A stretch of DNA of 64,000 nucleotides from Spirochaetota bacterium (GTDB taxonomy: Bacteria; Spirochaetota; UBA4802; UBA5368), in NCBI GenBank assembly GCA_004297825.1, contig SCSX01000084.1, forward strand, positions 42,862 to 106,861, in the 5' to 3' direction. The translations under genes and the position numbers were made by a program. The notes under the pieces were generated by a model. It searched no databases and was not told where the DNA came from. It saw only the letters and a program-made list of their open reading frames with translations. Shown here piece after piece: positions 3,348 to 39,446 of this stretch. How positions within the stretch are numbered: the stretch's first letter is position 1; every line of letters begins with the position of its first letter.

Positions 3348-3377
3348 AGTCTGCCCCCGAATATTTTATGATATGGT

Positions 3378-4619: not shown

Positions 4620-4689
4620 TCCGATACCCCGACTAGTTGATAATATGTAACGTGCGTGTGAAGGGCTTGCCGATCATATTTGTCGGCGC

Positions 4690-5802: not shown

Positions 5803-5888
5803 GATAATTTTCCATATTGTAGTTCAACTGTCAGGCATAGCTTGCAAAATATTAAAGGCCTGTAACAACATCGAGCGACAGCCGCATA

Positions 5889-7580: not shown

Positions 7581-7778
7581 TGGGACCCCCTTTTTCCTGG
7601 TGAACATTGATTACCTTATATCTGTCATATGTCGACAATTATATATATATTAGTATTTGTCAAGTTATAAATATTTCCGAAATTAAGGCCTGTCTTTCCG
7701 GGAACAGGAAGCCGGTAAAATTTTCTTGATTATTTGTTCGTAAAGCACAGCAAATGCATTTTTCGGAGAAACACTGGT

Positions 7779-16964: not shown

Positions 16965-18107
16965 TTAGTCCGCGTAGCCCCTCTCCGTCTCGCGCGCGAT
17001 GACCATGCGCTGCACCTCGGAGGTGCCCTCGTAGATCGTCGTCACGCGCGCGTCGCGGTAGATGCGCTCGATTTTGTTGTCGCGGATATACCCGTAGCCG
17101 CCGAATACCTGGAGCGCCTTGTAGGCGGAGCGGTTCGCCGCTTCCGACGCGAAGAGCTTCGCGATGGACGCCTCGCGCGAAAAGGGGAGCTTCCGGTCCT
17201 TCATGGACGCCGCCGACCACGTGAGAAGCCGCGCGGCCTCGCTGTCCACGGAAATGTCCGCGATCATATTCTGGATCGACTGATGGCGGATAATGGCCCT
17301 TCCGAACTGCTTGCGCACCTGCGCATACTCGCTCGCCTCGTGCAGCGCCGCCGCGATCATGCCGGTCGCCTGCGAGGCGATGCCGATCCTCCCGCTGTCG
17401 AGCGCCCCGAGCGCGGTCTTGAGCCCCATGCCGGGCCCTCCGAGCATGTAGCGCTCCGGAACCTCGCAGTCCTCCAGAATGAGCTCCACGGTATTCGACG
17501 CGAGGAGCCCCATCTTGTGCTCCTCCTTGCCGATCTTCAATCCCTTCGTGCCGGCGGGAATGAGGAACGCCGACGTCCCGTTCCTGTCCGCGGAGGTGCG
17601 CGCCATCAGGATGAAAACGCCCGCGTACGCGCCGTTCGTGATGAACATCTTCGTCCCGTTCAGGATGTAGCTCTTGCCTTTCTTAACCGCGGAGGTTTTT
17701 AAAGACGAGGGGTCCGATCCTGCCTCCGGCTCGGTGAGCGCGAACGCGCCGACATGTTCGCCGGATGCAAGGGGAACCAGGAACTCCATTTTCTGTTCCT
17801 CGGTGCCATAGTTGAGGATGGGATCGGTGCAGAGGTTCGTCACCGAGAGCGTGACGGCCACCGATGCGCAGGAAAAGGCGATCTCCTGGAGCGCGAGGCT
17901 GTAGCTCACCGCGCCTGCGGCGGAGCCGCCATACTGCTCCGGGACCATCATGCCGAAAAGCCCGAGCCCCCCGAGCTTCGCGATGATATCTTTCGGGTAT
18001 TCGCCGCGCAGGTTGTACTCCTGGGCGATCGGCTCGATCTCGCCGCGGGCGAACTCGCGGATCATGTCCCGTATCATTATCTGTTCGTCGGTAAGCGGAA
18101 GTTTCAT
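16965..18107 (-). CDS. Acyl-CoA dehydrogenase
   Basis: 380 aa. ACAD N-terminal, middle and C-terminal domain signatures (GAFALTEPEAGSD, YGGYGY..D, catalytic E in IYEGTSEVQ). Confidence 0.85.
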   Translation of the reverse strand: MKLPLTDEQIMIRDMIREFARGEIEPIAQEYNLRGEYPKDIIAKLGGLGLFGMMVPEQYGGSAAGAVSYSLALQEIAFSCASVAVTLSVTNLCTDPILNYGTEEQKMEFLVPLASGEHVGAFALTEPEAGSDPSSLKTSAVKKGKSYILNGTKMFITNGAYAGVFILMARTSADRNGTSAFLIPAGTKGLKIGKEEHKMGLLASNTVELILEDCEVPERYMLGGPGMGLKTALGALDSGRIGIASQATGMIAAALHEASEYAQVRKQFGRAIIRHQSIQNMIADISVDSEAARLLTWSAASMKDRKLPFSREASIAKLFASEAANRSAYKALQVFGGYGYIRDNKIERIYRDARVTTIYEGTSEVQRMVIARETERGYAD

Positions 18108-18116
18108 CGTTCTCTC

Positions 18117-18680
18117 CTATGGCGTGTACAGGGTGACGATGAGTACGGTCTTCGCCTTCCCGGGGTTCCTGAGCGAGTGACGGACGCTGGAATCGAAATG
18201 GAGCGTAGTGTCCTTTTTGAGATGGTGCTCCTTCTGCCCCACCTTCACCATGACCTCGCCCTTGAGCACGTAGACGAACTCCTCGCCCTCGTGCTGGTAG
18301 CGCTGGCCCGGAAGCTCCGAGCGCGGGGGGATGGTCACGCGAAACGAGCGCAGATGGCCCTTCATCGCGTTAGGCGTGAGCACCTCGTACTCGTAGGCCT
18401 GCTCGCGGCTCTTGAAGCCGCGAATCCGGTCCTTCTCGCGCTCCCGGTCCTTGCCAGTGTCCTTTTTCAGGAGTTCGCCCGGGTCTATCGTGAGCGCCCG
18501 CGCGATTTTCAGGATATCGCCCACCGGGGCGAAATCGGTGCCGTCCTCGATCCGGGCGAGGTGCGCCTCGGCGAGCCCGGTTTTCGCGGCCAGTTCCCCG
18601 ATGCTCATCTTGAGCTTGCTGCGCCTGGTCTTGAGCGCGCGCGCAAGCGCGCCTCCGTGCGGTGCGGGTGTTGAATGCAT
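18117..18680 (-). CDS. XRE-family HTH transcriptional regulator with C-terminal cupin domain
   Basis: HTH (MSIGELAAKTGLAEAHLARIEDG) plus a cupin_2-like beta-barrel C-terminus (FVYVLKGEVMVKVG..HLKKDTTLHFDSSVRH). The start could be the internal MSIGE. Confidence 0.65.
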   Translation of the reverse strand: MHSTPAPHGGALARALKTRRSKLKMSIGELAAKTGLAEAHLARIEDGTDFAPVGDILKIARALTIDPGELLKKDTGKDREREKDRIRGFKSREQAYEYEVLTPNAMKGHLRSFRVTIPPRSELPGQRYQHEGEEFVYVLKGEVMVKVGQKEHHLKKDTTLHFDSSVRHSLRNPGKAKTVLIVTLYTP

Positions 18681-18724
18681 GCGTACCTCCGCGTTTTCTG
18701 TTTCAATATGGGTGCGAAAAAAAA

Positions 18725-18790
18725 GGTGTAAGAATGGGGGAGAGGGGGATGGGATGAGATTGAGGAGATATCAGAATTATTAATAGCTAA
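18725..18790 (+). repeat. Purine-rich ~65-bp intergenic element, copy B
   Basis: GGTGTAAGAATGGGGGAGAGGGGGATGGGATGAGATTGAGGAGATATCAGAATTATTAAT. Shares the GTGTAAGAAT, GGGGAGAGGG, GATGAGAT and TCA(A)GAATT blocks with copy A. Confidence 0.5.
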
Positions 18791-18982
18791 GGCGATAGAA
18801 TGTTTCCCCGGTCGCCGCTTCCCGATTCTTACGAAACGTTTCGCAATAAATTAGTTTGATGGTAAAATTATGCAAGCAATAAACTGATAGGGTTGTCGTG
18901 CGGGTTGCCTTGGGAACGGCGGCAGGATACCTTATTCAAGATGACGTCTCGATCAATACCGGGGAATGCGGGAGGGTGCACG

Positions 18983-19501
18983 ATGCGGAACATCACGCCA
19001 CATCTATGGTTCGACAAGGAGGCCGCGGAGGCGGCCGTGTTTTATTGTTCGGTTTTCTCAAATTCGAGGATTACGGGGATCACTACCATCCACGAGGTCC
19101 CGAGCCCCACGGGGGACAGCGATATCGTCTCGTTCGAGCTCAGGGGCCTGCCCTTCATGGCGATCAACGCCGGTCCCCTTTTCACCTTCAACCCCTCGGT
19201 GTCGTTTTTGGTGAATTACGACCCGTCGCGGGAACGCGAAGCCTCCGAAAATATCGATGCGGCGTGGGAAATGCTTTTACCGGGCGGGACGGTCCTCATG
19301 CCCCTGCAGGAGTACCCGTGGAGCAGGCGATACGGCTGGATAAAGGACAAATACGGGCTTTCCTGGCAGGTGACTCCCACCATCATGGCCGAAATGATGG
19401 CGAAGGGCACACCCGAACAGGTCGCCCGCGTCACCAGGGCGTTCCTTCCCATGAAGAAGTTCGATCTGGGCGCGCTGCAGAAGGCGTACGAAGGGCCGTG
19501 A
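18983..19501 (+). CDS. VOC-superfamily protein (PhnB-like), second paralog
   Basis: 172 aa. HLWFDKEAAEAAVFY.., KDKYGLSWQV. GGGAGGGTG RBS. Confidence 0.6.
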   Translation: MRNITPHLWFDKEAAEAAVFYCSVFSNSRITGITTIHEVPSPTGDSDIVSFELRGLPFMAINAGPLFTFNPSVSFLVNYDPSREREASENIDAAWEMLLPGGTVLMPLQEYPWSRRYGWIKDKYGLSWQVTPTIMAEMMAKGTPEQVARVTRAFLPMKKFDLGALQKAYEGP

Positions 19502-19510
19502 CCGGCGTTC

Positions 19511-19546
19511 CCCGTAGAGACGCGATTAATCGCGTCTCTACGGGGA
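19511..19546. repeat. Perfect 36-bp palindrome (16-bp arms, TTAA centre)
   Basis: CCCCGTAGAGACGCGA-TTAA-TCGCGTCTCTACGGGG, read directly from the DNA. It lies between the convergent VOC (+) and etfA (-) genes. Confidence 0.6.
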
Positions 19547-19606
19547 ATTCACACCGCGTCTCTACAGGGAATTCACGCCGCGTCCCCACAGGGAATTCAC
19601 ACCGCA
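19547..19606. repeat. About 2.5 tandem copies of a 24-bp unit (AATTCACRCCGCGTCYCYACAGGG)
   Basis: The right arm of the palindrome resembles the unit. Copies 1 and 2 are complete; copy 3 runs into the etfA stop codon. Confidence 0.5.
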
Positions 19607-20628
19607 CGCGTTTCTTTTTTCAAGCGGGCGGTGAACCGCTTGAGGAATTCACGCGCATCGTCCGTCACCACGTAGTCCGATATGCCGTTGATGGGCGCGG
19701 AGGCGTCGTTGTTGATCGATACGATTATCTCCGAATCTACAATGGACGCCGTGTGTTGTATCTGGCCCGATATCCCGAATCCCAGGTAGAGCCGCGGGCG
19801 TATGGTCTTTCCCGTCTGGCCGATCATGCGCTCCTCGCCGCACCACCGGTTGAATACCGGCACCCGCGTCGCGCCGACCTCGCCGCCCAGGACATCCGCG
19901 AGATCGAACAGGCAGTCGAAGCCCTTTTTCGTCCCCAAGCCGCGCCCGCCCGCGACGACGACCGGGGCCTGCTCCAGCGGAACGCGCGGCTTGTCCCAGC
20001 GTGTGGGATTTTCCAAATGCGTGATTTTATAGTTAGAGAGATCGTAGTCGAAGGGGACGCGCACGACCTCCGATTTATTGCCGGGGAGCTCTTTCTTGTC
20101 AAACACCCCCTGCTGGACGGTCGCCATTTGAGGGCGCGCGTGCGGGCAGATGACGGTCGCGATCGCGTTCCCGCTGTAGGCCGGGCGCTTCATCACGAGG
20201 AGCCCCTTCCCGTATTCGTCCGAGTCCATGATCGAGAGCCCCGTGCAGTGCGAGGTGAGCCCGGTGGAGAAGCGCTGCGCGAGACGGGGCGCGAGGTCCG
20301 TTCCCGCCTCCGTGGAGGGAAAGAGCATGATCGAAGGGGCGTGGGCGCGGATAAGCCTTTCGATCATGTCGGGGAATATGGCGCCGTCGTAATGCTTAAG
20401 GGCGCGGTCGCTCGCGCAAAAGATCGCGTCGGGACCGAACCTTTCGATTACGGGAAGGTACCGCTCGGCGTCGAGCGCGAAGACGAGCGCGCACAGCCGG
20501 GACCCGAGCGTATCGGCGAGCGCGCGGCCTATGGTCAACAGCTCGCAGGAGCCCTCCAGCACGCGCTCGTGGTCCTGGATCTCGGCGAACACCCAGACGT
20601 CTTTTCCGTTATGTGCCATTGGTTTCAA
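19597..20628 (-). CDS. etfA: Electron transfer flavoprotein alpha subunit
   Basis: 343 aa. FAD-binding C-terminal domain (VVAGGRGLG, PRLYLGFGISGQIQH). Confidence 0.85.
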   Translation of the reverse strand: MKPMAHNGKDVWVFAEIQDHERVLEGSCELLTIGRALADTLGSRLCALVFALDAERYLPVIERFGPDAIFCASDRALKHYDGAIFPDMIERLIRAHAPSIMLFPSTEAGTDLAPRLAQRFSTGLTSHCTGLSIMDSDEYGKGLLVMKRPAYSGNAIATVICPHARPQMATVQQGVFDKKELPGNKSEVVRVPFDYDLSNYKITHLENPTRWDKPRVPLEQAPVVVAGGRGLGTKKGFDCLFDLADVLGGEVGATRVPVFNRWCGEERMIGQTGKTIRPRLYLGFGISGQIQHTASIVDSEIIVSINNDASAPINGISDYVVTDDAREFLKRFTARLKKETRAV

Positions 20629-21416
20629 TTTCTCAGTAGATTGTGTTTTTTCAGTTTGTGTATCAGACCCTCGATCTTTTCGTCAAGGGTGCCCGGGAGC
20701 GCCTCGCGCCCGCGCGCGTGCGTGAAGAGCTCGGTGCCGATCACCATGGTGGGCGACCCCGCGGCCCCGTACTCGTCAGCGCTCCCGCCGATATCGGACA
20801 ACCCCATGACGGCGATCTCCCTGCCCGTGCAGTTCTTGAGGTCCGCGAGGCGCGGCGCGCGCACCCGGTTCGCGTTCCTGCCGGCCGATACGAGCAGGGG
20901 CAGGGCGACGCGTATCTTCTGGTATTCGTGCCCGTAGAGCCGCTCGACGATCGCGTGCCCGTCCTCGATCCGGATGTCGTGAACCTGCGTGACGTGCGGG
21001 ATGCCCAAAAATTCAGAGAGCTGGTAGCCCACGTGCGCCGTGTTGCCGTCGATCGCCTCGAAGCCGGTCACGACGACGTCGAACGCGCCGAGCTTCGTAA
21101 TGGCGCGCGCGAGTATCTTGCTCGTCACGAGCGAATCGGAACCGGCGAAACACGGACCGCTCACGAGCACGCAGCGGTCCACACCCAGGGCGTAGGCCTC
21201 CGCGAGCACGTCGGACGCCTGGGGTGGTCCCATGCTTATCGCCGTGACGCTCCCGCCGCACGCGTCGCGGAGGGCGAGCGCCGCCTCGATCGCGTGGAGA
21301 TCGTCGGGGTTCGTTATGTTCTCCGCGGACGCGCGGTCGAGCACGCCCGTCTTCGGATCGAAGGACGCGCGGTGCGTGTCGGGAACCTGTTTGATGCAGA
21401 CTATAATTGATAGCAT
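20625..21416 (-). CDS. etfB: Electron transfer flavoprotein beta subunit
   Basis: 263 aa, starting MLSIIVCIKQVPD (canonical EtfB N-terminus). The stop overlaps the etfA start (ATGA). Confidence 0.85.
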   Translation of the reverse strand: MLSIIVCIKQVPDTHRASFDPKTGVLDRASAENITNPDDLHAIEAALALRDACGGSVTAISMGPPQASDVLAEAYALGVDRCVLVSGPCFAGSDSLVTSKILARAITKLGAFDVVVTGFEAIDGNTAHVGYQLSEFLGIPHVTQVHDIRIEDGHAIVERLYGHEYQKIRVALPLLVSAGRNANRVRAPRLADLKNCTGREIAVMGLSDIGGSADEYGAAGSPTMVIGTELFTHARGREALPGTLDEKIEGLIHKLKKHNLLRN

Positions 21417-21427
21417 GGTGGCTGTTT

Positions 21428-22585
21428 TTAAATCTTCGAAAATTCCTTCACGATCGCGTTGCCGATTATGATTTTCATGACCTCGGAGGTGCCTTCGTAT
21501 ATCTGGGTAATCTTCGCGTCGCGGAAGAAGCGTTCCACCGGGAGGTCTTTTACATAGCCGTAGCCGCCAAACACCTGGAGCGCCTCGGTGCACGTGCGCA
21601 TGGCGACGCCCGACGCGTAGAGCTTGCACATGGCCGATTCCACGGAAAAGGGGAGCCCCTTGTCTTTTAAACATGCGGCGCGGTAGACGAGGAGCCGCGC
21701 CGCGTCGAGCTCCGTGCGCATCTCGGCGAGCTTGAATGAAATTCCCTGGAATGAACCGATAGGCCTTCCGAACTGGGCGCGCTCGGTCGCGTAGGTCGCG
21801 GCGGCCTCGTACGCCGCCATCCCGATCCCCAGCGCCTGCGCCGCAATACCGATGCGCCCGATGTCGAGCGTCTGCATCGAAATACTGAAACCGTCCTCGA
21901 CGCGGCCCAGTACGTTTTCTTTCGGGACGCGCACGTTGCTGAAAAAAAGCTCGGAGACCATGTTGCCGCGCATGCCCATCATGTCTTCGATTTTCCCCAC
22001 CTCGAAGCCGGGCATTGATTTCTCGACTATGAAGATGGCGATGCCGCCCGTCTTCTTTCCGGGGTCCACTGTCGCGCCCACGAGGAAGACCTCGCCGGTG
22101 CCGCCGTTGGTGACGAACGCCTTCTGGCCGTTCAGCACGTAGCCGTCCCCGTCGGGAACCGCGGTCGTACGGATGGAAGCGGCGTCGGAGCCCGCCTGCG
22201 GCTCGGTGATCGTGAAGCCGCCCAGTTTTTTCCCGCGGGCAAGATCCGGTGCGAGGCGCTCGACCTGTTCCGGCGTTCCGAATTTCAGTATCGGCGCGAG
22301 GCATACGGAGTTGTGCACGGTCACGCCCAGGCCCACGGCGGCGCTCACGCGCGAGAGCTCCTCGATTACGATCGCGTAGCTTACCGTGTCGAGGTCCGCG
22401 CCGCCGAACCTCTCCGGCGCCTGTATCCCCCACATGTTGAGGCGCCCCATCTCGCGCACGACCTCCGGGGGAAGCGGCTTCGAATCGCGGTCGAGCGTGT
22501 TCGCCCATTCGTCGAGCGTCCCGGTCGCGAACTTCCGCACACTCTTGCGGATCATGAGCTGGTGCCTGGCAAGGGTGAAATCCAT
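21428..22585 (-). CDS. Acyl-CoA dehydrogenase (short/butyryl-CoA DH-like), co-operonic with etfBA
   Basis: 385 aa from MDFTLARHQLMIRK. ACAD signatures GGFTITEPQAGSD, YGGYGY, IYEGTSEV. Forms an ACAD-etfB-etfA operon. Confidence 0.85.
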   Translation of the reverse strand: MDFTLARHQLMIRKSVRKFATGTLDEWANTLDRDSKPLPPEVVREMGRLNMWGIQAPERFGGADLDTVSYAIVIEELSRVSAAVGLGVTVHNSVCLAPILKFGTPEQVERLAPDLARGKKLGGFTITEPQAGSDAASIRTTAVPDGDGYVLNGQKAFVTNGGTGEVFLVGATVDPGKKTGGIAIFIVEKSMPGFEVGKIEDMMGMRGNMVSELFFSNVRVPKENVLGRVEDGFSISMQTLDIGRIGIAAQALGIGMAAYEAAATYATERAQFGRPIGSFQGISFKLAEMRTELDAARLLVYRAACLKDKGLPFSVESAMCKLYASGVAMRTCTEALQVFGGYGYVKDLPVERFFRDAKITQIYEGTSEVMKIIIGNAIVKEFSKI

Positions 22586-22821: not shown

Positions 22822-24228
22822 ATGAAAACGGCCCATGACTTTTTTCACTCTTACCTGTCCGAAAACATATCAGACGCCGACACCCTTGAGCGGATGCGCA
22901 ACGTCATCTCCGAATTCTCAACACGCGCCCCAAAAATCATCGTAATGAAATGTATCGACGGCCGGGTCCATGGGAGCAAGGCCAAGGGCTATCCCCCCAC
23001 CACCGTCCGGTTCGGGCGTACCGACGGCAACAAGGTATCGCTCGATATGAGCAATTTCTGGTACTGGAACCGTATTGACCGGGTCGTCAAGGACGCCCAC
23101 TTCAATACCCCGGAAACGCCGGCCCTCTTCATAGCCTTCATGCACCATTCACCGAAAGGCCACGGCTGCGCCTCGCATAACAGTGACGATGCAGCGGCCC
23201 TTGTATCGGTGGAAGAGCAGGTCGCGGCGGTCCGCAAAACATACAAAGAATCCGAGCTCTACGTCATGGGCGGCGATACCAACACCGACATCATGGCCGA
23301 AACGCTCATCTTTCCCGGCAGTTACCGTATCGATACGGAAAACATCATTCAGTACTGCAATTTAAAAAAACCGCGCGACGTGTTCCACGAGGCGTTCCTG
23401 AAAAACAAAATCGACGATGTCGCTACCTCAAGAAATGTGGACCACAAGACGCCGGATGATCTGCTTAACGGGATCAATCCGGAGTATTTCACAAACTTCC
23501 AGACCTGCCTCAACATGGAAAACTATCTTCTTCGCGAGATTACCACGATGCTCAACAAGGACCGGGGCGATCTCAAGCGGCTCATCCGACCGGACATCCT
23601 GGACTATATCTTCGTAACCCTTGATCGGGTCAAAATACCTAAAACGCTCGTCGGCCCCATCCTCTACCAGGTAATATGGAATATCACGTATGCCCTGTAC
23701 CAGATGAAGCTCGTAGACCACCTCTCGCCGGAAGAGCTGGAACGCCATCTCGATCATGCCGAGGAGCTGGTCTGCTACGGCGACGGGTTCGAGACGCTTC
23801 CGCGCAATAAGGCCGTGCTGGTCAAGACCGGACGGGGGGACGACGTCGATGCGCTTAATGTGTCGATGAATGTGCTTACGAAAAACCGCAAGCGTTATCA
23901 ACAGGACCACAAGCTCCTTGTGCATATAAACATCGAGGTGATGGGCGAGATGATGTCCTGGGACGATTTTAACGATAACGTCGGCTCCCGCATTCTTACC
24001 ATGCGACGGAACGTGGATTTTGTTTTCGGAAACGACGTGGCGATCCTCACATCGTATTCCTACCGCGATCAGAAGCGTTTTTACCCGGTCAAGATTTCCA
24101 AGGACGATGCCCGCATAGTGTACCCCGCGGACGTTATCTCGGAGATCAATTCCTCGCTCAAGTTCAGCAACATTTCGCTTAAGGCCCAGGAGGCCATCTA
24201 TAAAGCGAGTTTTATCGGTAAACTTTAA
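22822..24228 (+). CDS. Hypothetical 468-aa cytoplasmic protein, low-GC orphan
   Basis: No signal peptide or TM segment. Contains KIIVMKCIDGRVHG and FMHHSPKGHGCASH blocks. GC visibly lower (~50%) than both flanks. No family recognised. Confidence 0.5.
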   Translation: MKTAHDFFHSYLSENISDADTLERMRNVISEFSTRAPKIIVMKCIDGRVHGSKAKGYPPTTVRFGRTDGNKVSLDMSNFWYWNRIDRVVKDAHFNTPETPALFIAFMHHSPKGHGCASHNSDDAAALVSVEEQVAAVRKTYKESELYVMGGDTNTDIMAETLIFPGSYRIDTENIIQYCNLKKPRDVFHEAFLKNKIDDVATSRNVDHKTPDDLLNGINPEYFTNFQTCLNMENYLLREITTMLNKDRGDLKRLIRPDILDYIFVTLDRVKIPKTLVGPILYQVIWNITYALYQMKLVDHLSPEELERHLDHAEELVCYGDGFETLPRNKAVLVKTGRGDDVDALNVSMNVLTKNRKRYQQDHKLLVHINIEVMGEMMSWDDFNDNVGSRILTMRRNVDFVFGNDVAILTSYSYRDQKRFYPVKISKDDARIVYPADVISEINSSLKFSNISLKAQEAIYKASFIGKL

Positions 24229-24321: not shown

Positions 24322-25077
24322 TTACCTTCCCATGAATTTTAAAAGTCCGTTCACCACCGTGAGCGGATGTACTGGACATCCGGGTATGTAGAGATCGATA
24401 TGGTGTTTATCCAGAAATTCGCGATTGAGCGCCGCCGATCCCTGGAATACGCCGCCGGATATCGCGCAACTCCCTGCGAGAATCACCACCTTCGGGTCCG
24501 GTGTGCACATATAGGCATCCTCCAGGGCCGGGGCCATGTTTTCCGAAATTGGTCCTGTGATCAGGATTCCGTCCGCGTGACGCGGAGAGGCTACGAATTC
24601 TATCCCAAAGCGTCCCATATCGAAGTTCGGATTGCCGCAGGCATTAAGCTCCCACTCGCACCCATTGCATCCGGCGGCGGATACCTGGCGAAGTTTGAAG
24701 GAGGCGCCAAACAGCCGTTTTATCTCCTGCCTCGCTTCGATGGCGCCGGAGAGGTACTCTTCCGCGTTTTTTGCGCCGTCCACCACCAGGTAATCCCTCG
24801 ACGTTGACGCGATCTTGTGAAAAGTCGAAAACGTGATCGATTTTTCCGGGCACTCCCGCGCGCAGTCGCCGCAGAAGACGCATTTCCCCAGGTCGATCGC
24901 AAGCGGCCGCGCCGAAATCGCCCCCACGGGGCAGACCTCACGGCACGCGTCACACCTGCCGCATTTCGATCCATCCACGGCGGGGAGCCCTCTGAAGGGA
25001 GGGCGTATCTCGGCCCTGGTCACGTCAGGAATCGCCTGTTCGCCCTGGTTTTTCCTTATTTTCAGCGTATTAATCAT
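24322..25077 (-). CDS. Fused 2x[4Fe-4S] ferredoxin (NuoI/HyfH-like) plus NuoB/HyfI-like small subunit
   Basis: Start MINTLKI (AAGGAG RBS overlapping the upstream stop). Two CxxCxxCxxxCP motifs (CGRCDACREVCP, CVFCGDCARECP), then a NuoB-like domain with the four cluster cysteines (GCNGC, GSCA, GCP). Confidence 0.8.
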   Translation of the reverse strand: MINTLKIRKNQGEQAIPDVTRAEIRPPFRGLPAVDGSKCGRCDACREVCPVGAISARPLAIDLGKCVFCGDCARECPEKSITFSTFHKIASTSRDYLVVDGAKNAEEYLSGAIEARQEIKRLFGASFKLRQVSAAGCNGCEWELNACGNPNFDMGRFGIEFVASPRHADGILITGPISENMAPALEDAYMCTPDPKVVILAGSCAISGGVFQGSAALNREFLDKHHIDLYIPGCPVHPLTVVNGLLKFMGR

Positions 25078-25087
25078 GGTGCGCTCC

Positions 25088-26578
25088 TTACAGGTCGTTG
25101 CCGCAATACGAAAGATTGAAGCTCTTATTACAGAGCGGAAAGTCGGAGATGCCATTCCCGCGCAGCGCATAGGCCAGCCCGTACCAGTTCTGCAGGGACG
25201 GGTCTTTTATCTTGTATCGGACGATCTTCCCCTTTTTCCCGGTTACGGCGCAGTGTACGATTTCGCCGCGCCATCCTTCCGTCATTGAAACGACCAGGCT
25301 GTCGGAGGGAAGTTTGTGAAGCGGCGAGATGAGCGGCTTATCGTCCGGAAGCCCGTCGAGCTGTTCAAAGATGAATTCGATCGATTGTTTTATCTCAATG
25401 TAGCGCATATAGGAGCGGGCGAAGACGTCGCCGCTGAGCATAGTGCGCTTGTGAACGGGATAAAACCGATATATGCCAAAGGGATGATCGGCCCGCACGT
25501 CGAGTGACACGCCAGAGGCGCGTCCCGCGGGTCCTACAAGGCCCATTTTCGTAGCGGCCTCAAAATCAACCGTACCGGTATGGTCCAGGCGAGAGAGAAC
25601 GCTCGCCATCTCGAACATCGCCTCACCCATGAGCTCCACGTCCCTGGAAACCTTGGTGAGTTTTTCCTTGAATTCCCTGACGTGATCCGGCTTAAAATCG
25701 AAGGCGACGCCGCCCTCGCGCACGAGTCCCCTGCCGAAGCGGCTTCCCGTGAGGCTAAGGAGGGTGTTGATCACCAGGGTGCGGGTTACGCCGAAGACCG
25801 CATTACCCAGCAGATAGGCGACGTCGTTCGCGATCGCGCCGAGGTCCCCAATGTGGATGGCCGCGCGCTCCATTTCCAGCGCAATGGCGCGGATCGCCTG
25901 CGCCCGCCGGCTTATCTCAACGTTCGACAGCGCTTCAATGGCGTCCGCGTACGCGGTGGCGTGACCGATCACCGTATCTCCCGCGATCGACTCCGCGAGA
26001 TGGATGCCCGACCGGTCATAACGCTCGACCATGAGGCGTTCCACACCGCGGTGCTGGTAACCGAGCTGTATCTCGAGATGGTGCACGTCCTCACCCTGGC
26101 ACATGAAACGGAAATGCCCGGGCTCGATCACACCCGCATGCACGGGACCCACGGCTACCTCGTGCACCTCCTCTCCCTTCATGGTGAAGAACGGATAACT
26201 CTCCATCGTTTTCTCATGGTCGGCGCGGTCATGCCCGTAGCGCACCCCCTTGAGCCAGGGATGCCCCTCCGGCGTTATGCCCGTGTCCTCGTAGAACTCC
26301 CGCTCGAAGATATGGAAACGCGGCGCCTCGGGGGTAATTGCCTGGTAACGGCGTTCCCTGCCCATCGCGCCGGATGATATATAAAGCCGGTTTGCTTCGT
26401 CGTCGGCGAGTACCGCGTACACTGTCTCCGTCCTGCCGTTCGGCATTCCAAAGAATGCGACGACCCTTCTGCCCTCGCGGCATCGCCCGACGATCTGGGC
26501 GCGAAGTTCGTCCATTGTCATTTCCGGAATGTCGGCCAGCCTTACAGGCCGATTATTTTTCGTATATATCCATTTCAT
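25088..26578 (-). CDS. Fused NuoC-NuoD / HycE-HyfG-like 'large subunit' lacking NiFe-binding cysteines
   Basis: 496 aa. NuoC-like N-terminal part, then a NuoD/hydrogenase large-subunit fold (HFRF, LGYQHRGVE). Only 5 Cys in total and no CxxC pair. The position matching the N-terminal R-x-C-G-x-C-x-x-x-H block reads ESIAGDTVIGHATAY. The C-terminus is ..LCNKSFNLSYCGNDL, with no DPCxxC. Confidence 0.75.
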   Translation of the reverse strand: MKWIYTKNNRPVRLADIPEMTMDELRAQIVGRCREGRRVVAFFGMPNGRTETVYAVLADDEANRLYISSGAMGRERRYQAITPEAPRFHIFEREFYEDTGITPEGHPWLKGVRYGHDRADHEKTMESYPFFTMKGEEVHEVAVGPVHAGVIEPGHFRFMCQGEDVHHLEIQLGYQHRGVERLMVERYDRSGIHLAESIAGDTVIGHATAYADAIEALSNVEISRRAQAIRAIALEMERAAIHIGDLGAIANDVAYLLGNAVFGVTRTLVINTLLSLTGSRFGRGLVREGGVAFDFKPDHVREFKEKLTKVSRDVELMGEAMFEMASVLSRLDHTGTVDFEAATKMGLVGPAGRASGVSLDVRADHPFGIYRFYPVHKRTMLSGDVFARSYMRYIEIKQSIEFIFEQLDGLPDDKPLISPLHKLPSDSLVVSMTEGWRGEIVHCAVTGKKGKIVRYKIKDPSLQNWYGLAYALRGNGISDFPLCNKSFNLSYCGNDL

Positions 26579-26596
26579 GATTTTACAATCCCCCTG

Positions 26597-28003
26597 TTAA
26601 AGTAACGCCGCGGCTTTCTGGAAAAGGGCCTGCACGAAGAATGGCATGGACACGCCCATGGAGAGCAGAAGCGCAAGGAAGGCGAACTGCGGCAGGTATG
26701 AAAGCACCCCCGCGCCGTGCGCCGCCGGGCCGTCGGTGGAGGCGCCAAAGCTCATCCGCAGCACCGCTTTGCCGATTCCTGCCATGTTGATCGTCAGTAA
26801 AAGGAGAAAGAGGACCATGTGGACGAACATCCCCGCGTCAAACATCGACTTCGCCGCAAGGAACTCGCTCAGGAATATGGGAAACGGCGGGATGCCCACG
26901 ATGCCGGCGAAGCAAAGCATCCAGAGCCACCCCGTTGCGGGTTCGGACCGGAGCAGTCCCCGTACGTCCTCGATCTGCTTGGATTTAAAGCGGTGCAGGA
27001 TATTCCCCGAGGTGAGAAAGAAAGCCGCCTTGGTCAGCGAGTGCGCCGCCAGGTGGAGCATGGCGGCGAAAAGGCCCGCCCCGCCGACCCCGAGGCAAAT
27101 GGCGATGATCCCCATGTTCTCGATGGAAGAATAGGCGAGCATTCGCTTGTAGTTTTTGATATTGATGATGTATACCGCGGAAACGAAAATCGAGATGAAG
27201 CCGATCACGAGCAGAAGGTTGTCTGCATACCATCGCATTCCCGCCAGACTCATGAGCTTGTTAATACGCGCGATACCCAATAATGCCGCATTGAGAAGCG
27301 TCCCCGAGAGGAGTGCCGAAACCGGCGAGGGCGACTCCGAGTGTGCGTCGGGCAGCCAGGCGTGCACGGGGGCGAAACCCACCTTGGTGCCGAACCCCAC
27401 GAGCATTAATGGAAAGGATAGCTTCAGCCAGTAGGGGGTAATATTCCGCGCTCCCGCGTAAAGGTCGTCAAAGAAAAGAGAGCCCGAATCTCCCAGCCCC
27501 ATCGAAAGGACGATGATGCCGACGAATGCCAGGGCGATTCCGATCGAACAAATAAACAGGTATTTCCAGGTCGCCTCGAGCGAGGCCTCCGAATGGCTGA
27601 AATAAATAAGATACGAGCTCGAAAGCGTCGTGGCCTCAACGAAGACCCAGAGGAGCGCGAGGTGCGTGGAAAGAATCACCCCGGTCATGGAGGCGACGAA
27701 AACCAGGATATTCGCGGTAAAAAGCGACTGGCTCTTGGCCGGGGCTTCATTGTTTTTCAGGTAGTCGACAAGAAATACCGCCACCCCGAGGAAGACGACG
27801 GCCAGGACAAGAAGAAAAAGTACGTTAAGATCGTCGATTCTGAAATACGGGGTGAACGATGCCGGGTTGAAATACAACAAAATAGAGACAGCCATGAATG
27901 CCGCCGCATAGGACACCGTCACGATGATATTCAGCGCCTTGTTCCTCACAACGAGAACTACTATAGAAAGCGCTATCGGGAGAAATAGTAAAGTTTCTAT
28001 CAT
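26597..28003 (-). CDS. NuoN/HyfF-like antiporter-type membrane subunit
   Basis: 468 aa, polytopic. Mrp/complex-I antiporter-like signature (FGTKVGFAPVHAWLPDAH). Confidence 0.75.
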   Translation of the reverse strand: MIETLLFLPIALSIVVLVVRNKALNIIVTVSYAAAFMAVSILLYFNPASFTPYFRIDDLNVLFLLVLAVVFLGVAVFLVDYLKNNEAPAKSQSLFTANILVFVASMTGVILSTHLALLWVFVEATTLSSSYLIYFSHSEASLEATWKYLFICSIGIALAFVGIIVLSMGLGDSGSLFFDDLYAGARNITPYWLKLSFPLMLVGFGTKVGFAPVHAWLPDAHSESPSPVSALLSGTLLNAALLGIARINKLMSLAGMRWYADNLLLVIGFISIFVSAVYIINIKNYKRMLAYSSIENMGIIAICLGVGGAGLFAAMLHLAAHSLTKAAFFLTSGNILHRFKSKQIEDVRGLLRSEPATGWLWMLCFAGIVGIPPFPIFLSEFLAAKSMFDAGMFVHMVLFLLLLTINMAGIGKAVLRMSFGASTDGPAAHGAGVLSYLPQFAFLALLLSMGVSMPFFVQALFQKAAALL

Positions 28004-28007
28004 GGCC

Positions 28008-28643
28008 TTAATCCTTTAATTTCGCGAGCGTGTTGATGTGGGTGTCGGAGTACGAATCCTGCACTTTATTGATGAATAGCCCGAGCAGGTACACGGCGAT
28101 AAAGATGTCCAGGAGCACGCCCATCGCGACGATGAAGGGCATTTCGCGCGCAATGGAAAGCGCCAGGAGAAAAATGCCGTTTTCGAGCATCATGTATCCC
28201 ATTACGTGGGTAATGATTTTTTTGCGCGAGATAATTATGAACAGTCCCGTTACAATAGTGGAGATGGAAATGCCGAAGTAGAAGGGTCTGATATTACTTA
28301 CCGTCCCCGCGGACCAGTAGGCGATGTAGAAACCGGCAGCGAAAATCGCGGTCGTGATCGCGAGGGATGAATGATTTGTTACATAGGGATCAATCTCGCG
28401 GTAGATGCCGTTTTTGCGGATTACATACATGAGAAAGATCGGAATCGCTATGGCCTTGACGACGAGCGTTTCAAATGAAAGGAATATCAGGTTCGGAAGG
28501 TTGGTCGTTCCGTAATCGAACAATACCAGGAGAAACAGGATTACCCCCTGTGCCGCTATCGCCTTGACATAGCTTTCAATGCGCGTGGTGACTGAAACGT
28601 ACAACATGGTGAGTCCGAAAAGTATTATTATGAATTGGATCAT
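28008..28643 (-). CDS. HyfE-like small membrane subunit
   Basis: 212 aa from MIQFIIILF. About 6 TM helices. Size and operon position match HyfE. Confidence 0.55.
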   Translation of the reverse strand: MIQFIIILFGLTMLYVSVTTRIESYVKAIAAQGVILFLLVLFDYGTTNLPNLIFLSFETLVVKAIAIPIFLMYVIRKNGIYREIDPYVTNHSSLAITTAIFAAGFYIAYWSAGTVSNIRPFYFGISISTIVTGLFIIISRKKIITHVMGYMMLENGIFLLALSIAREMPFIVAMGVLLDIFIAVYLLGLFINKVQDSYSDTHINTLAKLKD

Positions 28644-29560
28644 TTGATGCCTCCCGCAATAAAAAGCACAACGGTTGAAATGATGATGGCCGAAATCGCG
28701 GTCATGAAGAGGAGAAACTGCGGCACATGCGTCATGCGCAACCGCGCTGTGACCGATTCGATGGTACCGATGACGACGGCCAGGAGCGCCTGTACGGCGA
28801 TCATTAGGCCCAGGGAAGCCCACAGGGGAAAGGCTGCCGGGATTACGAGGTTCGCAATGAGGGCGCCTATGACGACCATCTTCATGCCCGCCGCGTACAT
28901 GATGAATCCCATGTCGGGGCCGGAATTGTCGAGGACCATCACCTCGTGTATCATAGTGAGTTCAAGGTGGGTATTCGGGTCGTCCACGGGCACGCGGCAT
29001 CCCTCCGCAAGGAGCATGATGAAAAGTGCGATGATCCCCAGTGGCAATACGAGTATGGCCACATCGCCCCCCTTGGCGATTTCGAATATTCGTTCGAATG
29101 ACAATCCCCCGGATATGAGGCCCAGCGAGGCGATGATGATGAAAAATGCCGGCTCCACCAGCGCGGCAAAAGTCACCTCGCGGCTTGCCCCCATTCCCTC
29201 GAAACTCGAACCGGTATCCAGCGCGCCTACGACGGTAAAGAATCTCCCAATCCCGAGAACATATGCGAAGAGGATAAAATCCGCCTCGAAGGATATGACC
29301 GATTTCCCTCCCGCCAGCGGCGCGATGAGCCCAGCCGTAATGACGGCGGCGAACGTTACCGACGGGGCCAGGCGAAAGACGAAGGATGAAGTAGAGCTTA
29401 TCACTTCACCCTTTTTCATGAGCTTCATGAAGTCCCTGAAAGGCTGCATGATAGACGGGCCCTTCCGCCCTGCCCAGCGGGACTTTATTCGATTTATAAA
29501 CCCAAGAAATAAAAAGGGCATTATAAGAAGCAATGCTATGTTAATGATCGTTATCATCAT
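28640..29560 (-). CDS. NuoH/HycD/HyfC-like membrane subunit
   Basis: About 306 aa from MMITIINIALL. NuoH-type loop motif (RIKSRWAGRKGPSIMQPFRDFMKL). Confidence 0.75.
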   Translation of the reverse strand: MMITIINIALLLIMPFLFLGFINRIKSRWAGRKGPSIMQPFRDFMKLMKKGEVISSTSSFVFRLAPSVTFAAVITAGLIAPLAGGKSVISFEADFILFAYVLGIGRFFTVVGALDTGSSFEGMGASREVTFAALVEPAFFIIIASLGLISGGLSFERIFEIAKGGDVAILVLPLGIIALFIMLLAEGCRVPVDDPNTHLELTMIHEVMVLDNSGPDMGFIMYAAGMKMVVIGALIANLVIPAAFPLWASLGLMIAVQALLAVVIGTIESVTARLRMTHVPQFLLFMTAISAIIISTVVLFIAGGIK

Positions 29561-29561
29561 T

Positions 29562-31553
29562 TCAGACCACCATGATCCAGAGAGTAATCGAGATGAGGAA
29601 TACCAGGCCGTACAGGATGTACTGCTGGGTACTCCCGCTTTGAATCCAGGTAAAGGCATTCATGGACCGTTCGATCATCGAAAGGACGGGGTTGATGATT
29701 CCCCGCTCAAAGCGATCCTCCGCGTGGCTTTCAAAACCGGCTTCCCCGGGAAATAGTCCCTGCGGTTTCGTAAAGTGTATCTTCCAGGAAAAGAGCGGGC
29801 GGAAAATTCTTAAGAACGGCGCTGCGTAGGAAGAGGCGGTATACTGCATCCGTACGTTTCCGGCCTGGTATCCGCAGTCCCATGTTTTATACGTGTAGAC
29901 GCTCCGCTTTCTAAGAAGCAGGGCTCTCAAGAAAAAGATTGCGGCGAAGAGGCCTATGAAGACTGCCAGCCCTTTCGAAACGCCTCCGAGGGTTATAAGA
30001 TAGGGTGATGTGTCCAACGCTTTACCGCCTTCAGGCATAAGCTGCTGCGCCACGAGGGCGACGCCGGACAGGGCGTATTGCGGAAGAACGCCGATCAGGA
30101 CGATCAGCCCCATCTGGATGGCCATGGCGGCCTTCATCGAAAAAGAAACCTCGACCGGAGCTTCATGATACTCGCTTCGGGGGCTTCCCAGGAATACGAC
30201 GCCAAAGACCTTGGTGAAGCACAACAACGCCATGGCGCCGATAAACGCAAGGGACGCGAATGAGAAAACCATTGCGATTGAAAGCAGGGTGTTCCCGGCT
30301 GTGAGACCTTTCAACATCCCCCAGTAAATAAAAAACTCGCTCACGAAGCCGTTGAATGGCGGGAGCCCGCAAATAGCGATCGAACCCACCAGGAAGGCTG
30401 TGGCCGTAAATGCCATGAACTTAACGATGCCGCCCAGCTTTTCGATATCGAGGAGGTGCGTTTTTTGATACACCCCGCCAGTGGCGAAAAAGAGCAGCGA
30501 CTTGAAAATCGAATGGTTGAGCACGTGCAATATCCCGCCGGAATATCCGAGAAGCGCGAGCGGGACGTTCCCGTAAGCGGTTCCCAGCATGCCCAGTCCG
30601 ATGCCAATCCCGATGATACCGATGTTTTCAACGCTGTGATAGGCCAGGAGCCGCTTGATGTTGTGCTGGGCGATGGCGTAGGCGACGCCAAGGATGCCCG
30701 ATATCACCGAAATGATCAGGACGAAATAGGCGATTTCGAAGGCCGGCGTCTGTATCAGAAGCACGGTCCGGAGAATCCCGTATATCCCGGTTTTGATCAT
30801 AATTCCCGACATGAGGCCGGAAATGTGGCTCGGTGCGGCGGGATGCGCCTTGGGAAGCCAGGTATGAAAGGGGACGAAACCCGCCTTCGTGCCGAAGCCT
30901 ATGAACAAGAGCACGAAGACCAGGCTCGCCAGCCCGCGGTGCTCCTGGAATACGGTGGTGAATGAAGCAAAATCGAAACTGCCCGATTGAAACGCGGCGG
31001 CGAGGAACCCGACCATGAGGAAAAGAACCCCGATATGCATGGCGATCAGGTAGTTGATCGAAGCCTGATACACCTCCTCGCTCTCGTTTTCAAACGCCAC
31101 GAGAAAGAAAGAAGAAAGCGACATGATCTCCCAGGCGATGAGGAAGGCAACCGCGTTCTGAAGGGCGATTACGGAAAGCATCGAGGCGATAAGGGCGGCA
31201 AGGAAGAAGAAGTGCGATGTTGTTCCGTTCTTTTTCCCATAGTACGGCTTCATATACCCGATTGCGTATACCGTTCCCAGGAAGCTGATCCCGGCGATGA
31301 CAAGGGAAAAAAAAGCTGCGAGCTTATCGATCACCAGTCTTACCGTGCCGGTGGGGTACGAAAGGACATATGCCGCCGTGATCGGACTTTCCTCGAAAAG
31401 CGCGTTAAGCGAAACCCATGCGATCAGCGCCGCGCCGCAGCCGGTTCCCAAAGCCACGGCCCAGCTCTTCAGCCGCTCGGGGAGAACCATGGAAACGAGG
31501 CCCCCGGCAAGTATAATGCCGATACCGGCTATGAACAGGTCCATCATCTCCAT
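29562..31553 (-). CDS. NuoL/HyfB/HycC-like antiporter-type membrane subunit
   Basis: 663 aa, polytopic. Antiporter-module signature (GFGTKAGFVPFHTWLPKAH). Confidence 0.8.
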   Translation of the reverse strand: MEMMDLFIAGIGIILAGGLVSMVLPERLKSWAVALGTGCGAALIAWVSLNALFEESPITAAYVLSYPTGTVRLVIDKLAAFFSLVIAGISFLGTVYAIGYMKPYYGKKNGTTSHFFFLAALIASMLSVIALQNAVAFLIAWEIMSLSSFFLVAFENESEEVYQASINYLIAMHIGVLFLMVGFLAAAFQSGSFDFASFTTVFQEHRGLASLVFVLLFIGFGTKAGFVPFHTWLPKAHPAAPSHISGLMSGIMIKTGIYGILRTVLLIQTPAFEIAYFVLIISVISGILGVAYAIAQHNIKRLLAYHSVENIGIIGIGIGLGMLGTAYGNVPLALLGYSGGILHVLNHSIFKSLLFFATGGVYQKTHLLDIEKLGGIVKFMAFTATAFLVGSIAICGLPPFNGFVSEFFIYWGMLKGLTAGNTLLSIAMVFSFASLAFIGAMALLCFTKVFGVVFLGSPRSEYHEAPVEVSFSMKAAMAIQMGLIVLIGVLPQYALSGVALVAQQLMPEGGKALDTSPYLITLGGVSKGLAVFIGLFAAIFFLRALLLRKRSVYTYKTWDCGYQAGNVRMQYTASSYAAPFLRIFRPLFSWKIHFTKPQGLFPGEAGFESHAEDRFERGIINPVLSMIERSMNAFTWIQSGSTQQYILYGLVFLISITLWIMVV

Positions 31554-31556
31554 GGC

Positions 31557-32231
31557 TTACCTCTCCCTCCATTCCTTTTCAGCCCGTTCTATATAGTAGA
31601 GAACCACCTCTTTCTTCGGGCGATCCCGAAGCGTTTTCAGAAAATCTTCCTGCTTGCAGAGAAAAGAAATCTTCGACAGGATTTCCAGGTGCCGTTTCGC
31701 GTTAGACGAAATAATGATGAAAAGAGCCTGCACCGGCTCGCCGTCCAGGGCCCTGTAGTCGACGGGGTTTTTCAAAAAACATATGGACACGGATTCGTCG
31801 TCGATGTCCGATATAATCGGATTGCGCGGATGCGGTAGGGCGATCCCCTTGCCCACGGCGGTCGTCATCATTTCTTCCCGCTGAAGAAGCGACGCGAGCA
31901 CCGTGTCCTTGTCAATGCTTTTCGGCAGGGGGATCGTATTTACTACGCCGTCGATCACCCCCCGAACCGTTGCTCCCTCGATGCCGTAATGGATATCGCC
32001 CCGCTTGATGAGGTCGATAAGGGACACCGGCCTTGTCGTCAGGGTGAGGTCCAGTATCTTTTCGGATACGGCAATGTCGTTTCTCAAGATCCATTCGTTC
32101 ACTTCCGCCTTGTTAAAGAAGTACTGGTTTTTGATCTTGTACGACGGCATCTTTTTCTCGTTGATCCACTGCAGAATGGTCTTCTCCGGCACGTCGAACA
32201 GGTCGACGACGTCCTTCATTTTTAAATCCAT
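31557..32231 (-). CDS. Transcriptional regulator: N-terminal excisionase/MerR-type HTH fused to a PTS EIIA type-2 (EIIA-Ntr/fructose) domain
   Basis: 224 aa. HTH (VPEKTILQWINEKKMPSYKI). EIIA-2 domain with a candidate phospho-His in GKGIALPHPRNP. Ends 3 nt before the NuoL-like gene. GAGGAG RBS. Confidence 0.65.
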   Translation of the reverse strand: MDLKMKDVVDLFDVPEKTILQWINEKKMPSYKIKNQYFFNKAEVNEWILRNDIAVSEKILDLTLTTRPVSLIDLIKRGDIHYGIEGATVRGVIDGVVNTIPLPKSIDKDTVLASLLQREEMMTTAVGKGIALPHPRNPIISDIDDESVSICFLKNPVDYRALDGEPVQALFIIISSNAKRHLEILSKISFLCKQEDFLKTLRDRPKKEVVLYYIERAEKEWRER

Positions 32232-32252: not shown

Positions 32253-32591
32253 TTATTGCTTATTTTTAATGATGTCTTTGAATGGAATAATCTTCCGATA
32301 TTCCTCTTCATTGTTTTTCTTAGCTTCCCAAAGCGAGATGTCCGACTGCATCCCCAGCCAATATTCCACGGTGGTGTCAAAAAACCGCGCGAGCCTGATT
32401 GCCGTATCGTGAGTGATGGCCCGTTTTCCCAGGACCACCTCGTTGATACGCACTCTCGTTATTCCCAGGTGGTCGGCGAGATCCTGCTGGGTGATCCCCA
32501 GCGGCTCAAGGTATACTGACTTTAATACTTCGCCCGGATGCCGCGGGCGCCGGTCATTGCCGGAATCCTGGTTTTCCCTGTTTTTTTTCAT
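32253..32591 (-). CDS. higA: HigA-family addiction-module antidote protein (VapI-type XRE HTH)
   Basis: 112 aa. HPGEVLKSVYLEPLGITQQDLADHLGITRVRINEVVLGKRAITHDTAIRLARFF..WLGMQ is a close match to the HigA/VapI antidote family. Confidence 0.75.
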   Translation of the reverse strand: MKKNRENQDSGNDRRPRHPGEVLKSVYLEPLGITQQDLADHLGITRVRINEVVLGKRAITHDTAIRLARFFDTTVEYWLGMQSDISLWEAKKNNEEEYRKIIPFKDIIKNKQ

Positions 32592-39211: not shown

Positions 39212-39446
39212 GGAACGCTCCGGTTGATCGTGTCCGGGACCGAGTTGCGTGACGCGCATGCACCGGCGCATGGCTGAGACCATAGACGCCGGCGGCTCCT
39301 GCTCACACAGACTGAAGTATATTCAGTCAATTTTCGAAAGTCAAGTTTAAAAATTATTGACTGATAACACATTATGGTCATATTTACACGAGGCTGTGAA
39401 GCGCGCATTTTCCCGGATTCGTGCGCGGGACAGGCCGGCAGGGGAT

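Follow-up and report, generated by a model that had tools for sequence, protein, structure and literature searches.

The energy-converting hydrogenase-related complex Ehr was named in 2005 in Geobacter (Coppi 2005, as cited in PMC7894505 and PMC13194489), and the cluster of Geobacter sulfurreducens comprises EhrA-1/A-2/B/C/D/L/S (GSU0739-45). Ehr was described from Margulisbacteria in 2019 as a set of NuoCD and NuoIB fusions with HyfB, HyfF, NuoH, and HyfE homologues (PMC6349859, Supplementary Note 4), and the published tree groups these sequences with those of Spirochaetes and Lentisphaerae (PMC6349859). Geobacter Ehr subunits have been detected by proteomics, with an abundance that varies with growth substrate and is higher on formate (PMC7894505). 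Papers from 2023–2026 still describe the function of Ehr as unknown or presume it lost. Here we analyzed a 64,000-nt stretch of a Spirochaetota bacterium genome (GCA_004297825.1, contig SCSX01000084.1, positions 42,862–106,861), hereafter the window, in which seven minus-strand genes are tightly packed at 24322–32231: a gene for a protein with HTH and EIIA domains and then six subunit genes. We conclude, with very little room for doubt, that this operon encodes Ehr and not a hydrogenase, and we consider it on balance probable that its product is a ferredoxin-linked, ion-translocating oxidoreductase. The subunit genes are preceded by their own HTH-EIIA gene, a probable regulator. The family and its exact six-subunit architecture were already published in 2019, and the window is one more member; what is added here is the signature that the family shows at its remodelled site, evidence that excludes a site of the complex-I or MBS type, and an HTH-EIIA partner with a candidate operator.

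Assignment to Ehr was made against the published description and the clade named in PMC6349859, set beside Geobacter EhrL by description. The locus encodes a group-4/NuoD-homologous large subunit from which the L1 and L2 cysteines are gone, together with NuoB- and NuoI-type Fe-S modules, in a clustered ehrA-B-C-D-L-S arrangement. The same six subunit types, the fusions, and the loss of the NiFe CxxC motifs characterize published Ehr from Geobacter and from the clade of Riflemargulisbacteria, Melainabacteria, Lentisphaerae, and Spirochaetes. A first-pass annotation, made from the sequence alone, had proposed an Ehr-type architecture, which homology to HycE, the Fe-S small subunit, and the gene order all uphold. 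EhrA is one gene in the window, whereas it is split in Geobacter; an EhrA called as two open reading frames (ORFs), resembling Geobacter EhrA-1/A-2, was also seen in one related locus (L004, 5051–7040). The window locus has no counterpart of the formate dehydrogenase partner that has been proposed for Margulisbacteria.

The closest solved structures for EhrL (HycE) and EhrA (HycC) come from E. coli Hyf/Hyc (group 4a, PDB 7Z0S). The window shares the gene order hyfB-C-E-F-G-H-I but fuses HyfH and HyfI, and it is devoid of NiFe ligands, HyfA/HycB, HyfD, FdhF, hyp, and hycI. A Pfam scan of 47 window ORFs, which took in almost every non-overlapping one from 180 aa upward, detected no hyp, hycI, fdhF, or hycB-type genes, in agreement with the earlier statement that hyfA, hyfD, FdhF, HycB-like, and maturase genes are missing from the window. 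EhrL also lacks the C-terminal extension for protease processing found in HycE. Gene starts were chosen to fit homologues and an independent gene call on the identical public contig; the longest ORFs of EhrS, EhrB, and EhrC begin upstream of the true starts. From the HTH-EIIA gene to ehrS, the spacings are 3, 1, −4 (overlap), 4, 18, and 10 nt. Both the packing of seven minus-strand genes with small gaps and overlap and the subunit labels in hyf-like order had been read from the sequence beforehand; the former was reproduced by the ORFs and the gene call, the latter by Pfam and NCBIfam. All NCBIfam matches of the operon's proteins score under the equivalog cut-offs, which sets the family apart as divergent from Hyf and Nuo proper. 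A promoter consensus scan of the operon gave 8 promoter-like matches against 6.0 expected from shuffles, and no terminator-like matches from the scan lay inside the intergenic region after ehrS.

The remodelled large subunit and the redox and membrane parts

Residue-level alignment to solved structures placed Ala199, Thr202, Ser490, and Gly493 of EhrL at the four NiFe cysteine positions. In the first motif, HycE 'drvCgiCgfaH' stands opposite EhrL 'aesiAgdTvigH', and in the second, HycE 'SLDPCYSC' stands opposite 'SFNLSYCG', followed by 'NDL' and the stop codon. Neither the L1 (C-x-x-C...H) nor the L2 (D-P-C-x-x-C) motif of group 4 [NiFe] enzymes is therefore found in EhrL, whose signature reads E196-S-I-A199-G-D201-T202 ... 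S490-Y-C-G493-N-D-L496. HMMER was run exhaustively against 1.84 billion cluster representatives; of the 150 best matches, the 119 with at least 440 aa were aligned with the window protein. The NiFe cysteines were missing by motif in 114 of these 120 sequences. Column statistics were taken from 109 cysteine-less representatives covering both motif regions, in which the ligand columns hold A/S/C, S/T, S, and G and a family signature emerges: E-x-[IV]-x-G-D-[ST], and, at the extreme C-terminus where the second motif stands, [SP]-D-F-P-x-x-N-K-S-F-[ND]-L-S-Y-[CSA]-G-x-D-L. The individual positions are strongly conserved (D201, G200, and E152 in 102/109 each, S490 in 100/109, and G493 in 103/109). 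EhrL thus cannot bind NiFe, as the first-pass annotation had claimed, with all four cysteines replaced and 109 relatives alike.

Only six of the best 150 representatives carry C-G-x-C...H and L-C-Y-[SA]-C. They are 35–38% identical to the query and form their own clade in the opposite half of a rough, midpoint-rooted neighbour-joining tree. One of them (P0213) matches HycE with an E-value of 1e-110, compared with 1e-50 for the window EhrL. Nesting of the query within a true NiFe clade was considered and rejected on the basis of this separation.

Among solved structures, EhrL matches HycE best (E 1e-50), followed by MbhL of the membrane-bound hydrogenase MBH (E 4e-39), and MbsL of MBS, a membrane-bound reductase of sulfane sulfur, is much weaker (E 2e-18). 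The AlphaFold2 prediction for EhrL (predicted local distance difference test, pLDDT, 91.2; predicted template modelling score, pTM, 0.93) superposes best on HycE (7z0s_E, TM 0.89) and next on E. coli NuoCD. Its only low-confidence parts are former active-site elements, namely the beta1-beta2 loop (150–152) and the last four residues. EhrL retains the hydrogenase fold and a HycE-like beta1-beta2 loop, 'EPGHFRF', and its Glu152 aligns with the proton-gate Glu21 of MbhL. Of the two quinone ligands in Thermus thermophilus Nqo4, Tyr87 stands opposite EhrL Gly200 and His38 has no counterpart. Since neither these residues nor the HycE cysteines are matched, the EhrL site is of neither the hydrogenase nor the complex-I type. 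In HMM and structure comparisons with HycE, MbhL, and Nqo4, EhrL accordingly places as a NiFe-less group-4 homologue.

Three further cysteines of EhrL, Cys160, Cys483, and Cys492, co-occur in the query's subclade, with all three found in 34/109 representatives; in the other subclade they are replaced by V/A, I/V, and S/A, respectively. Cys492 sits between the former ligand positions Ser490 and Gly493.

The small subunit EhrS combines two [4Fe-4S] domains (residues ~33–84) with a NuoB-like domain (~119–248) and keeps 12 cluster cysteines, enough for three [4Fe-4S] clusters. Across 55 orthologues these cysteines are conserved, the eight that belong to the two ferredoxin-type clusters among them. 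The best solved match of EhrS is MbhJ and the second HycG, and it aligns with both without gaps through C-N-G-C, G-x-C-x-x-x-G-G, and G-C-P. Its proximal motif is thus the hydrogenase-type C-x-x-C, as opposed to the tandem Cys-Cys of complex I.

EhrA matches NF005086 (hydrogenase-4 subunit B) with 560 bits against a cut-off of 667, its best solved matches are HycC (7z0s_C, 1e-60) and MbhH, and alignment with these two shows that the Glu of transmembrane helix (TM) 5, the Lys of TM7 and of TM8, and the Glu of TM12 are retained. Charged relay residues are kept in both antiporter-like subunits, especially EhrA; EhrD matches NF005044 (hydrogenase-4 subunit F) with 334 bits, under the cut-off. EhrB carries two loops conserved across the family, DTGSsFEGMGAsRE and E..R.PvDDP.THLELTMiHEVMvLD. 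EhrC matches NF008556 (hydrogenase-4 membrane subunit, E 9e-18), with a weak PF00420 match and a conserved LENGif motif.

The ferredoxin-type three-cluster arm, the NuoH-like anchor, and the Mrp-type antiporter subunits are shared with Pyrococcus furiosus MBH and MBS (6CFW, 6U8Y). The NiFe site of MBH is absent from EhrL. In MBS, the proximal cluster has three Cys ligands, a MbsJ motif three residues shorter leaves an open catalytic iron, and two NiFe cysteines are kept (PMC7684303). In Ehr, by contrast, EhrS has all four Cys and is ungapped relative to MbhJ, EhrL has no Cys at the four ligand positions, and EhrL keeps Glu152 whereas MBS lacks the proton-gate Glu. Pfam and NCBIfam detected no counterparts of the small Mrp subunits (MrpB-, E-, F-, and G-like) in Ehr. 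With complex I/NDH-1, the operon shares NuoB, C, D, H, I, L, and N homologues and the overall NuoCD fold, but NuoE, F, and G are missing, and NuoA- and NuoJ-type genes are unrecognised at the Ehr locus. Likewise, neither the His38 and Tyr87 of Nqo4 nor the tandem Cys-Cys of NuoB has an equivalent, EhrS having C-N-G-C.

Conservation of the cassette and its HTH-EIIA partner

Comparison with two relatives at about 83% identity gave ratios of non-synonymous to synonymous substitution rates (dN/dS) of 0.02–0.09 for each of the seven genes, values that are approximate because dS is saturated; EhrC was lowest (0.02–0.03) and the HTH-EIIA gene stood at 0.04–0.07. Together with the conserved signature and clusters, these ratios indicate that the cassette is held by selection and is not a decayed hydrogenase, which backs the earlier proposal of a functional module.

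In a distribution scan with one genome per species, at least 600 stretches matched and 80 loci were kept. The kept loci include Spirochaetota, Victivallales/Lentisphaeraceae, Bacteroidota, Melainabacteria, Acidobacteriota, Verrucomicrobiota, Planctomycetota, Gemmatimonadota, Omnitrophota, Desulfobacterota, Zixibacteria, and others, and nearly all of those of sufficient length keep the order A-B-C-D-L-S. Homologues at 56–60% identity are annotated from Gastranaerophilales, Margulisiibacteriota, and related groups. In several loci from Planctomycetota, Gemmatimonadota, and Leptospiraceae (L023, L028, L031, L070, and L084), ~2 kb more DNA separates the HTH-EIIA gene from EhrB and may encode a further antiporter-like protein.

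Of the 56 genome loci whose upstream DNA is long enough, 37, spread over many phyla, have the HTH-EIIA gene immediately upstream of ehrA on the same strand; the Melainabacteria, Prolixibacteraceae, and Riflebacteria loci lack it. In the reverse direction, a metagenome scan was seeded with the EIIA motif alone. Where full-length HTH+EIIA matches had 600 nt or more of DNA downstream, the next gene was EhrA-like in 34/44; among EIIA-only matches this was so in 2/15, both cut by a contig end. The HTH-EIIA gene is thus a dedicated partner of the ehr operon and belongs to the system. No mention of it was found in the Ehr literature examined.

The encoded protein shares with PtsN/EIIA(Ntr) the EIIA-2 fold family (PF00359, 90 bits) and the invariant phosphorylatable His motif G-I-A-x-P-H, and it differs in carrying an additional N-terminal HTH_17 domain (excisionase/MerR-like) and in being dedicated to ehr operons. 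In the window protein the phospho-His motif reads GKGIALPH (His134), and both G-x-G-I-A-x-P-H and a second histidine, His181, are invariant in 17 orthologues. Its scores against the NCBIfam PtsN and FruA models are far under the cut-offs.

We searched the 150 nt upstream of HTH-EIIA genes for repeats and found a tandem TGTC[CAT]-N5-TGTC[CAT] in 24/100 upstream regions; control windows taken at these loci contained it in 8/6667, and shuffling predicts 0.22. The usual positions of the repeats are near −50 and −40, with a TTGACAT upstream of them near −75, and they look like a candidate operator of an autoregulating HTH-EIIA DNA-binding protein. The TGTCC(A) half-sites have a 10-bp spacing and occur in 2–4 copies ~40–80 nt upstream of the HTH-EIIA start, in L019, L022, L029, L036, L048, L061, L069, L087, L089, L100, L108, and other loci.

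In the window and its closest relatives, the intergenic region that bears the TGTCC repeats in other phyla is replaced by a gene for a small HTH_3 protein. It is the eighth gene on the same strand, 21 nt upstream of the HTH-EIIA gene, and may be on the same transcript as the operon. Beyond the window, only the closest relatives, L002 and L005, have it (70% identity), and it is thus lineage-specific and outside the conserved cassette.

Candidate reactions

MBH and MBS both have the NuoI-like domain as the module on their ferredoxin side (PMC7684303). When all ORFs of 83 related loci were clustered, no recurrent partner enzyme was found beside the operon apart from the seven genes; a SulP-type transporter, named from its sequence only, occurs in 7/83 loci and is adjacent in just 3. 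This lack of a recurrent dehydrogenase partner points to a diffusible carrier such as ferredoxin, and on these two grounds we infer ferredoxin as the redox partner. The NuoI-like domain of EhrS would receive reduced ferredoxin, a role that MbhN has in MBH and MbsN in MBS, and the three clusters would pass electrons on as far as the proximal one, which has its full set of cysteine ligands. At this point, an acceptor other than H+ or a canonical quinone, bound in the remodelled chamber between EhrL, EhrS, and EhrB, would be reduced with proton uptake. The resulting charge and conformational change would be relayed via EhrB and EhrC to EhrA and EhrD, moving H+ or Na+, and the reaction could equally run in reverse. 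HTH-EIIA, in turn, may be a PTS-phosphorylatable DNA-binding protein (PTS, phosphotransferase system) that switches the operon according to phosphoenolpyruvate supply and the carbon-nitrogen state.

Several observations weigh against this ferredoxin-linked pump. Net electron flow has no defined reaction without an identified acceptor. Ferredoxin-linked enzymes lie close by in three cases (Bcd-EtfBA in the window, POR with NuoEF-like genes in L002, and PFOR in L003), but they vary by locus, none recurs, and their presence could be coincidental. The TGTCC tandem repeats are absent upstream in the window itself and in its two nearest relatives, the saturation of dS limits what the dN/dS values can carry, and Geobacter Ehr has been treated as non-functional, with no test presented (PMC13194489).

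An oxidoreductase exchanging electrons between ferredoxin and quinone, or its reverse, in which the ion-motive force drives electrons from quinol to ferredoxin, would resemble photosynthetic NDH-1 and would bind menaquinone in the EhrL/EhrS/EhrB chamber. The NuoH-like subunit and the complex-I-like peripheral arm fit such an enzyme, and Planctomycetota, Verrucomicrobiota, Bacteroidota, and Gemmatimonadota generally make menaquinone. We nevertheless regard it as unlikely, because the ligands are missing, Gly200 standing in place of Nqo4 Tyr87 and His38 being unmatched, and because the same Ehr clade occurs in Riflemargulisbacteria, where a quinone biosynthesis pathway was not found (PMC6349859). 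The C-x-x-C of EhrS, in place of the complex-I tandem Cys-Cys (PMC7684303), speaks against quinone as well. The membrane part could instead work as a Mrp-like cation/proton antiporter that senses redox state, its Fe-S arm gating transport by the ferredoxin pool with no net catalysis and no second substrate. Neither an acceptor nor a partner dehydrogenase emerges from synteny, non-redox residues occupy the former active site, and the EIIA partner recalls E. coli PtsN, which controls K+ transporters. We find this quite improbable all the same, as a three-cluster wire, a proton-gate Glu, and a strictly conserved pocket seem more than a sensor needs, and MrpB-, E-, F-, and G-type subunits went undetected.

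MBS sets a precedent for a NiFe-less reductase in the superfamily (PMC7684303), and Ehr might likewise reduce sulfane sulfur, polysulfide, or another disulfide at its proximal [4Fe-4S] cluster, possibly aided in the query's subclade by the co-occurring Cys160, Cys483, and Cys492. MBS-type sulfur reduction is disfavoured because the shortened motif, the three-Cys cluster, and the two retained cysteines are all lacking: EhrS is not shortened relative to MbhJ and keeps all four ligands, and neither NiFe cysteine retained by MbsL occurs in EhrL. Moreover, the three extra cysteines are missing in over half the family and the similarity of EhrL to MbsL is far weaker than that to HycE, so that we give this chemistry only a slim chance. 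A decaying hydrogenase operon, or a NiFe hydrogenase misread through sequence errors, is effectively refuted by conservation. An identical protein from a Spirochaetota metagenome-assembled genome is publicly annotated just as 'hydrogenase', and one paper assumes that Ehr is non-functional (PMC13194489). Against this stand the seven intact ORFs, the low dN/dS, and the recurrence of the same substitutions in 109 representatives from many phyla. A sequencing error or frameshift hiding the NiFe motifs was rejected on the same family-wide signature and because the conserved D-L forms the very end of the protein, which leaves no frameshift that could restore DPCxxC.

Beyond the ferredoxin-linked pump itself, we tentatively raise the possibility that Ehr is a fourth catalytic type of the complex-I superfamily, a ferredoxin-driven ion pump whose chemistry is neither H2, quinone, nor MBS-type sulfur. 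Its rebuilt pocket would consist of the near-invariant Asp201, Ser/Thr202-Ser490-Tyr491, the retained proton-gate Glu, and, in the query's subclade, Cys160/Cys483/Cys492, and its expression or activity would be tied to PTS(Ntr) via HTH-EIIA binding to the tandem TGTCC repeats. Ehr is widespread, with at least 600 stretches in many phyla, yet it has been termed a complex of unknown function or even a set of dead genes. Purifying selection, a pocket signature of its own, and the kept electron and proton paths argue for an overlooked bioenergetic enzyme in anaerobes and environmental phyla. The HTH-EIIA gene and its candidate operator offer an experimental handle on inducing conditions, which may lead to the substrate.

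Neighbouring genes

Table 1 Features of the operon and its surroundings, in window positions.
Feature	Position	Strand	Length (aa)	Domains or matches
HTH_3 (XRE-family) small protein	32253-32591	-	112	PF01381
HTH_17+PTS_EIIA_2 (PtsN-like) protein	31557-32231	-	224	PF12728 + PF00359
EhrA, HyfB/HycC/NuoL-like antiporter-type subunit	29562-31553	-	663	PF00361 + PF00662
EhrB, NuoH/HyfC/HycD-like membrane anchor of the peripheral arm	28640-29560	-	306	PF00146
EhrC, HyfE-like membrane subunit, NuoK-like C-terminal part	28008-28643	-	211	NF008556
EhrD, HyfF/NuoN-like antiporter-type subunit	26597-28003	-	468	PF00361
EhrL, fused NuoC-NuoD/HyfG-like large subunit, without NiFe ligands	25088-26578	-	496	PF00329 + PF00346
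EhrS, fused HyfH/NuoI-like 2x[4Fe-4S] and HyfI/HycG/NuoB-like subunit	24322-25077	-	251	PF00037 x2 + PF01058
Protein convergent on ehrS	22822-24228	+	468	
Acyl-CoA dehydrogenase	21428-22585	-		
EtfB	20625-21416	-		
EtfA	19597-20619	-		
Cupin-HTH regulator	18117-18680	-		
Second acyl-CoA dehydrogenase	16965-18107	-		
AMP-binding acyl-CoA ligase	5889-7607	-		
2-Hydroxyglutaryl-CoA dehydratase D-component-type gene	4690-5802	-		
2-Hydroxyglutaryl-CoA dehydratase D-component-type gene	3378-4619	-		
AMP-binding acyl-CoA ligase	1539-3347	-		
Multihaem protein	39357-40070	+	237	cytochrome c554 + paired-CXXCH (multihaem)

The acyl-CoA dehydrogenase-EtfB-EtfA cluster is followed by the cupin-HTH regulator and the second acyl-CoA dehydrogenase, and the region as a whole (16965–22585) has the complement of genes of a Bcd/Etf system that bifurcates electrons and reduces ferredoxin. 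In the 84%-identical relative L002 (12497–19240), genes are inserted between ehrS and the carbonic-anhydrase-like gene; they encode rubrerythrin, a four-subunit 2-oxoacid:ferredoxin oxidoreductase, NuoE-like and NuoE+NuoF-like proteins, and 2Fe-2S/4Fe-4S proteins, and are possibly a ferredoxin/NADH-linked module beside Ehr.

For the 468-aa protein convergent on ehrS, no family match exceeds the threshold. Its alignment to CsoSCA, the carbonic anhydrase of the carboxysome shell (PDB 2fgy, E 0.003; Pfam CsoSCA_cat, 19.5 bits, below the cut-off), has the beta-carbonic anhydrase motifs in register (C-I-D-G-R versus C-A-D-G-R, and H...G-C-A-S-H versus H...G-C-A-A-H), and the protein may be a CsoSCA-like carbonic anhydrase without a carboxysome context. 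We rejected it as an Ehr partner, since with the thresholds applied it was detected in no loci but those of the two closest Spirochaetota relatives (93% identical), and in L002 it is 7 kb away from the ehr operon.

Farther away, the two dehydratase D-component-type genes are flanked by the two AMP-binding acyl-CoA ligases (1539–7607), an arrangement that suggests a ferredoxin-dependent 2-hydroxyacid or amino-acid fermentation pathway. The multihaem protein encoded on the plus strand is surprising for an apparently fermentative Spirochaetota genome.

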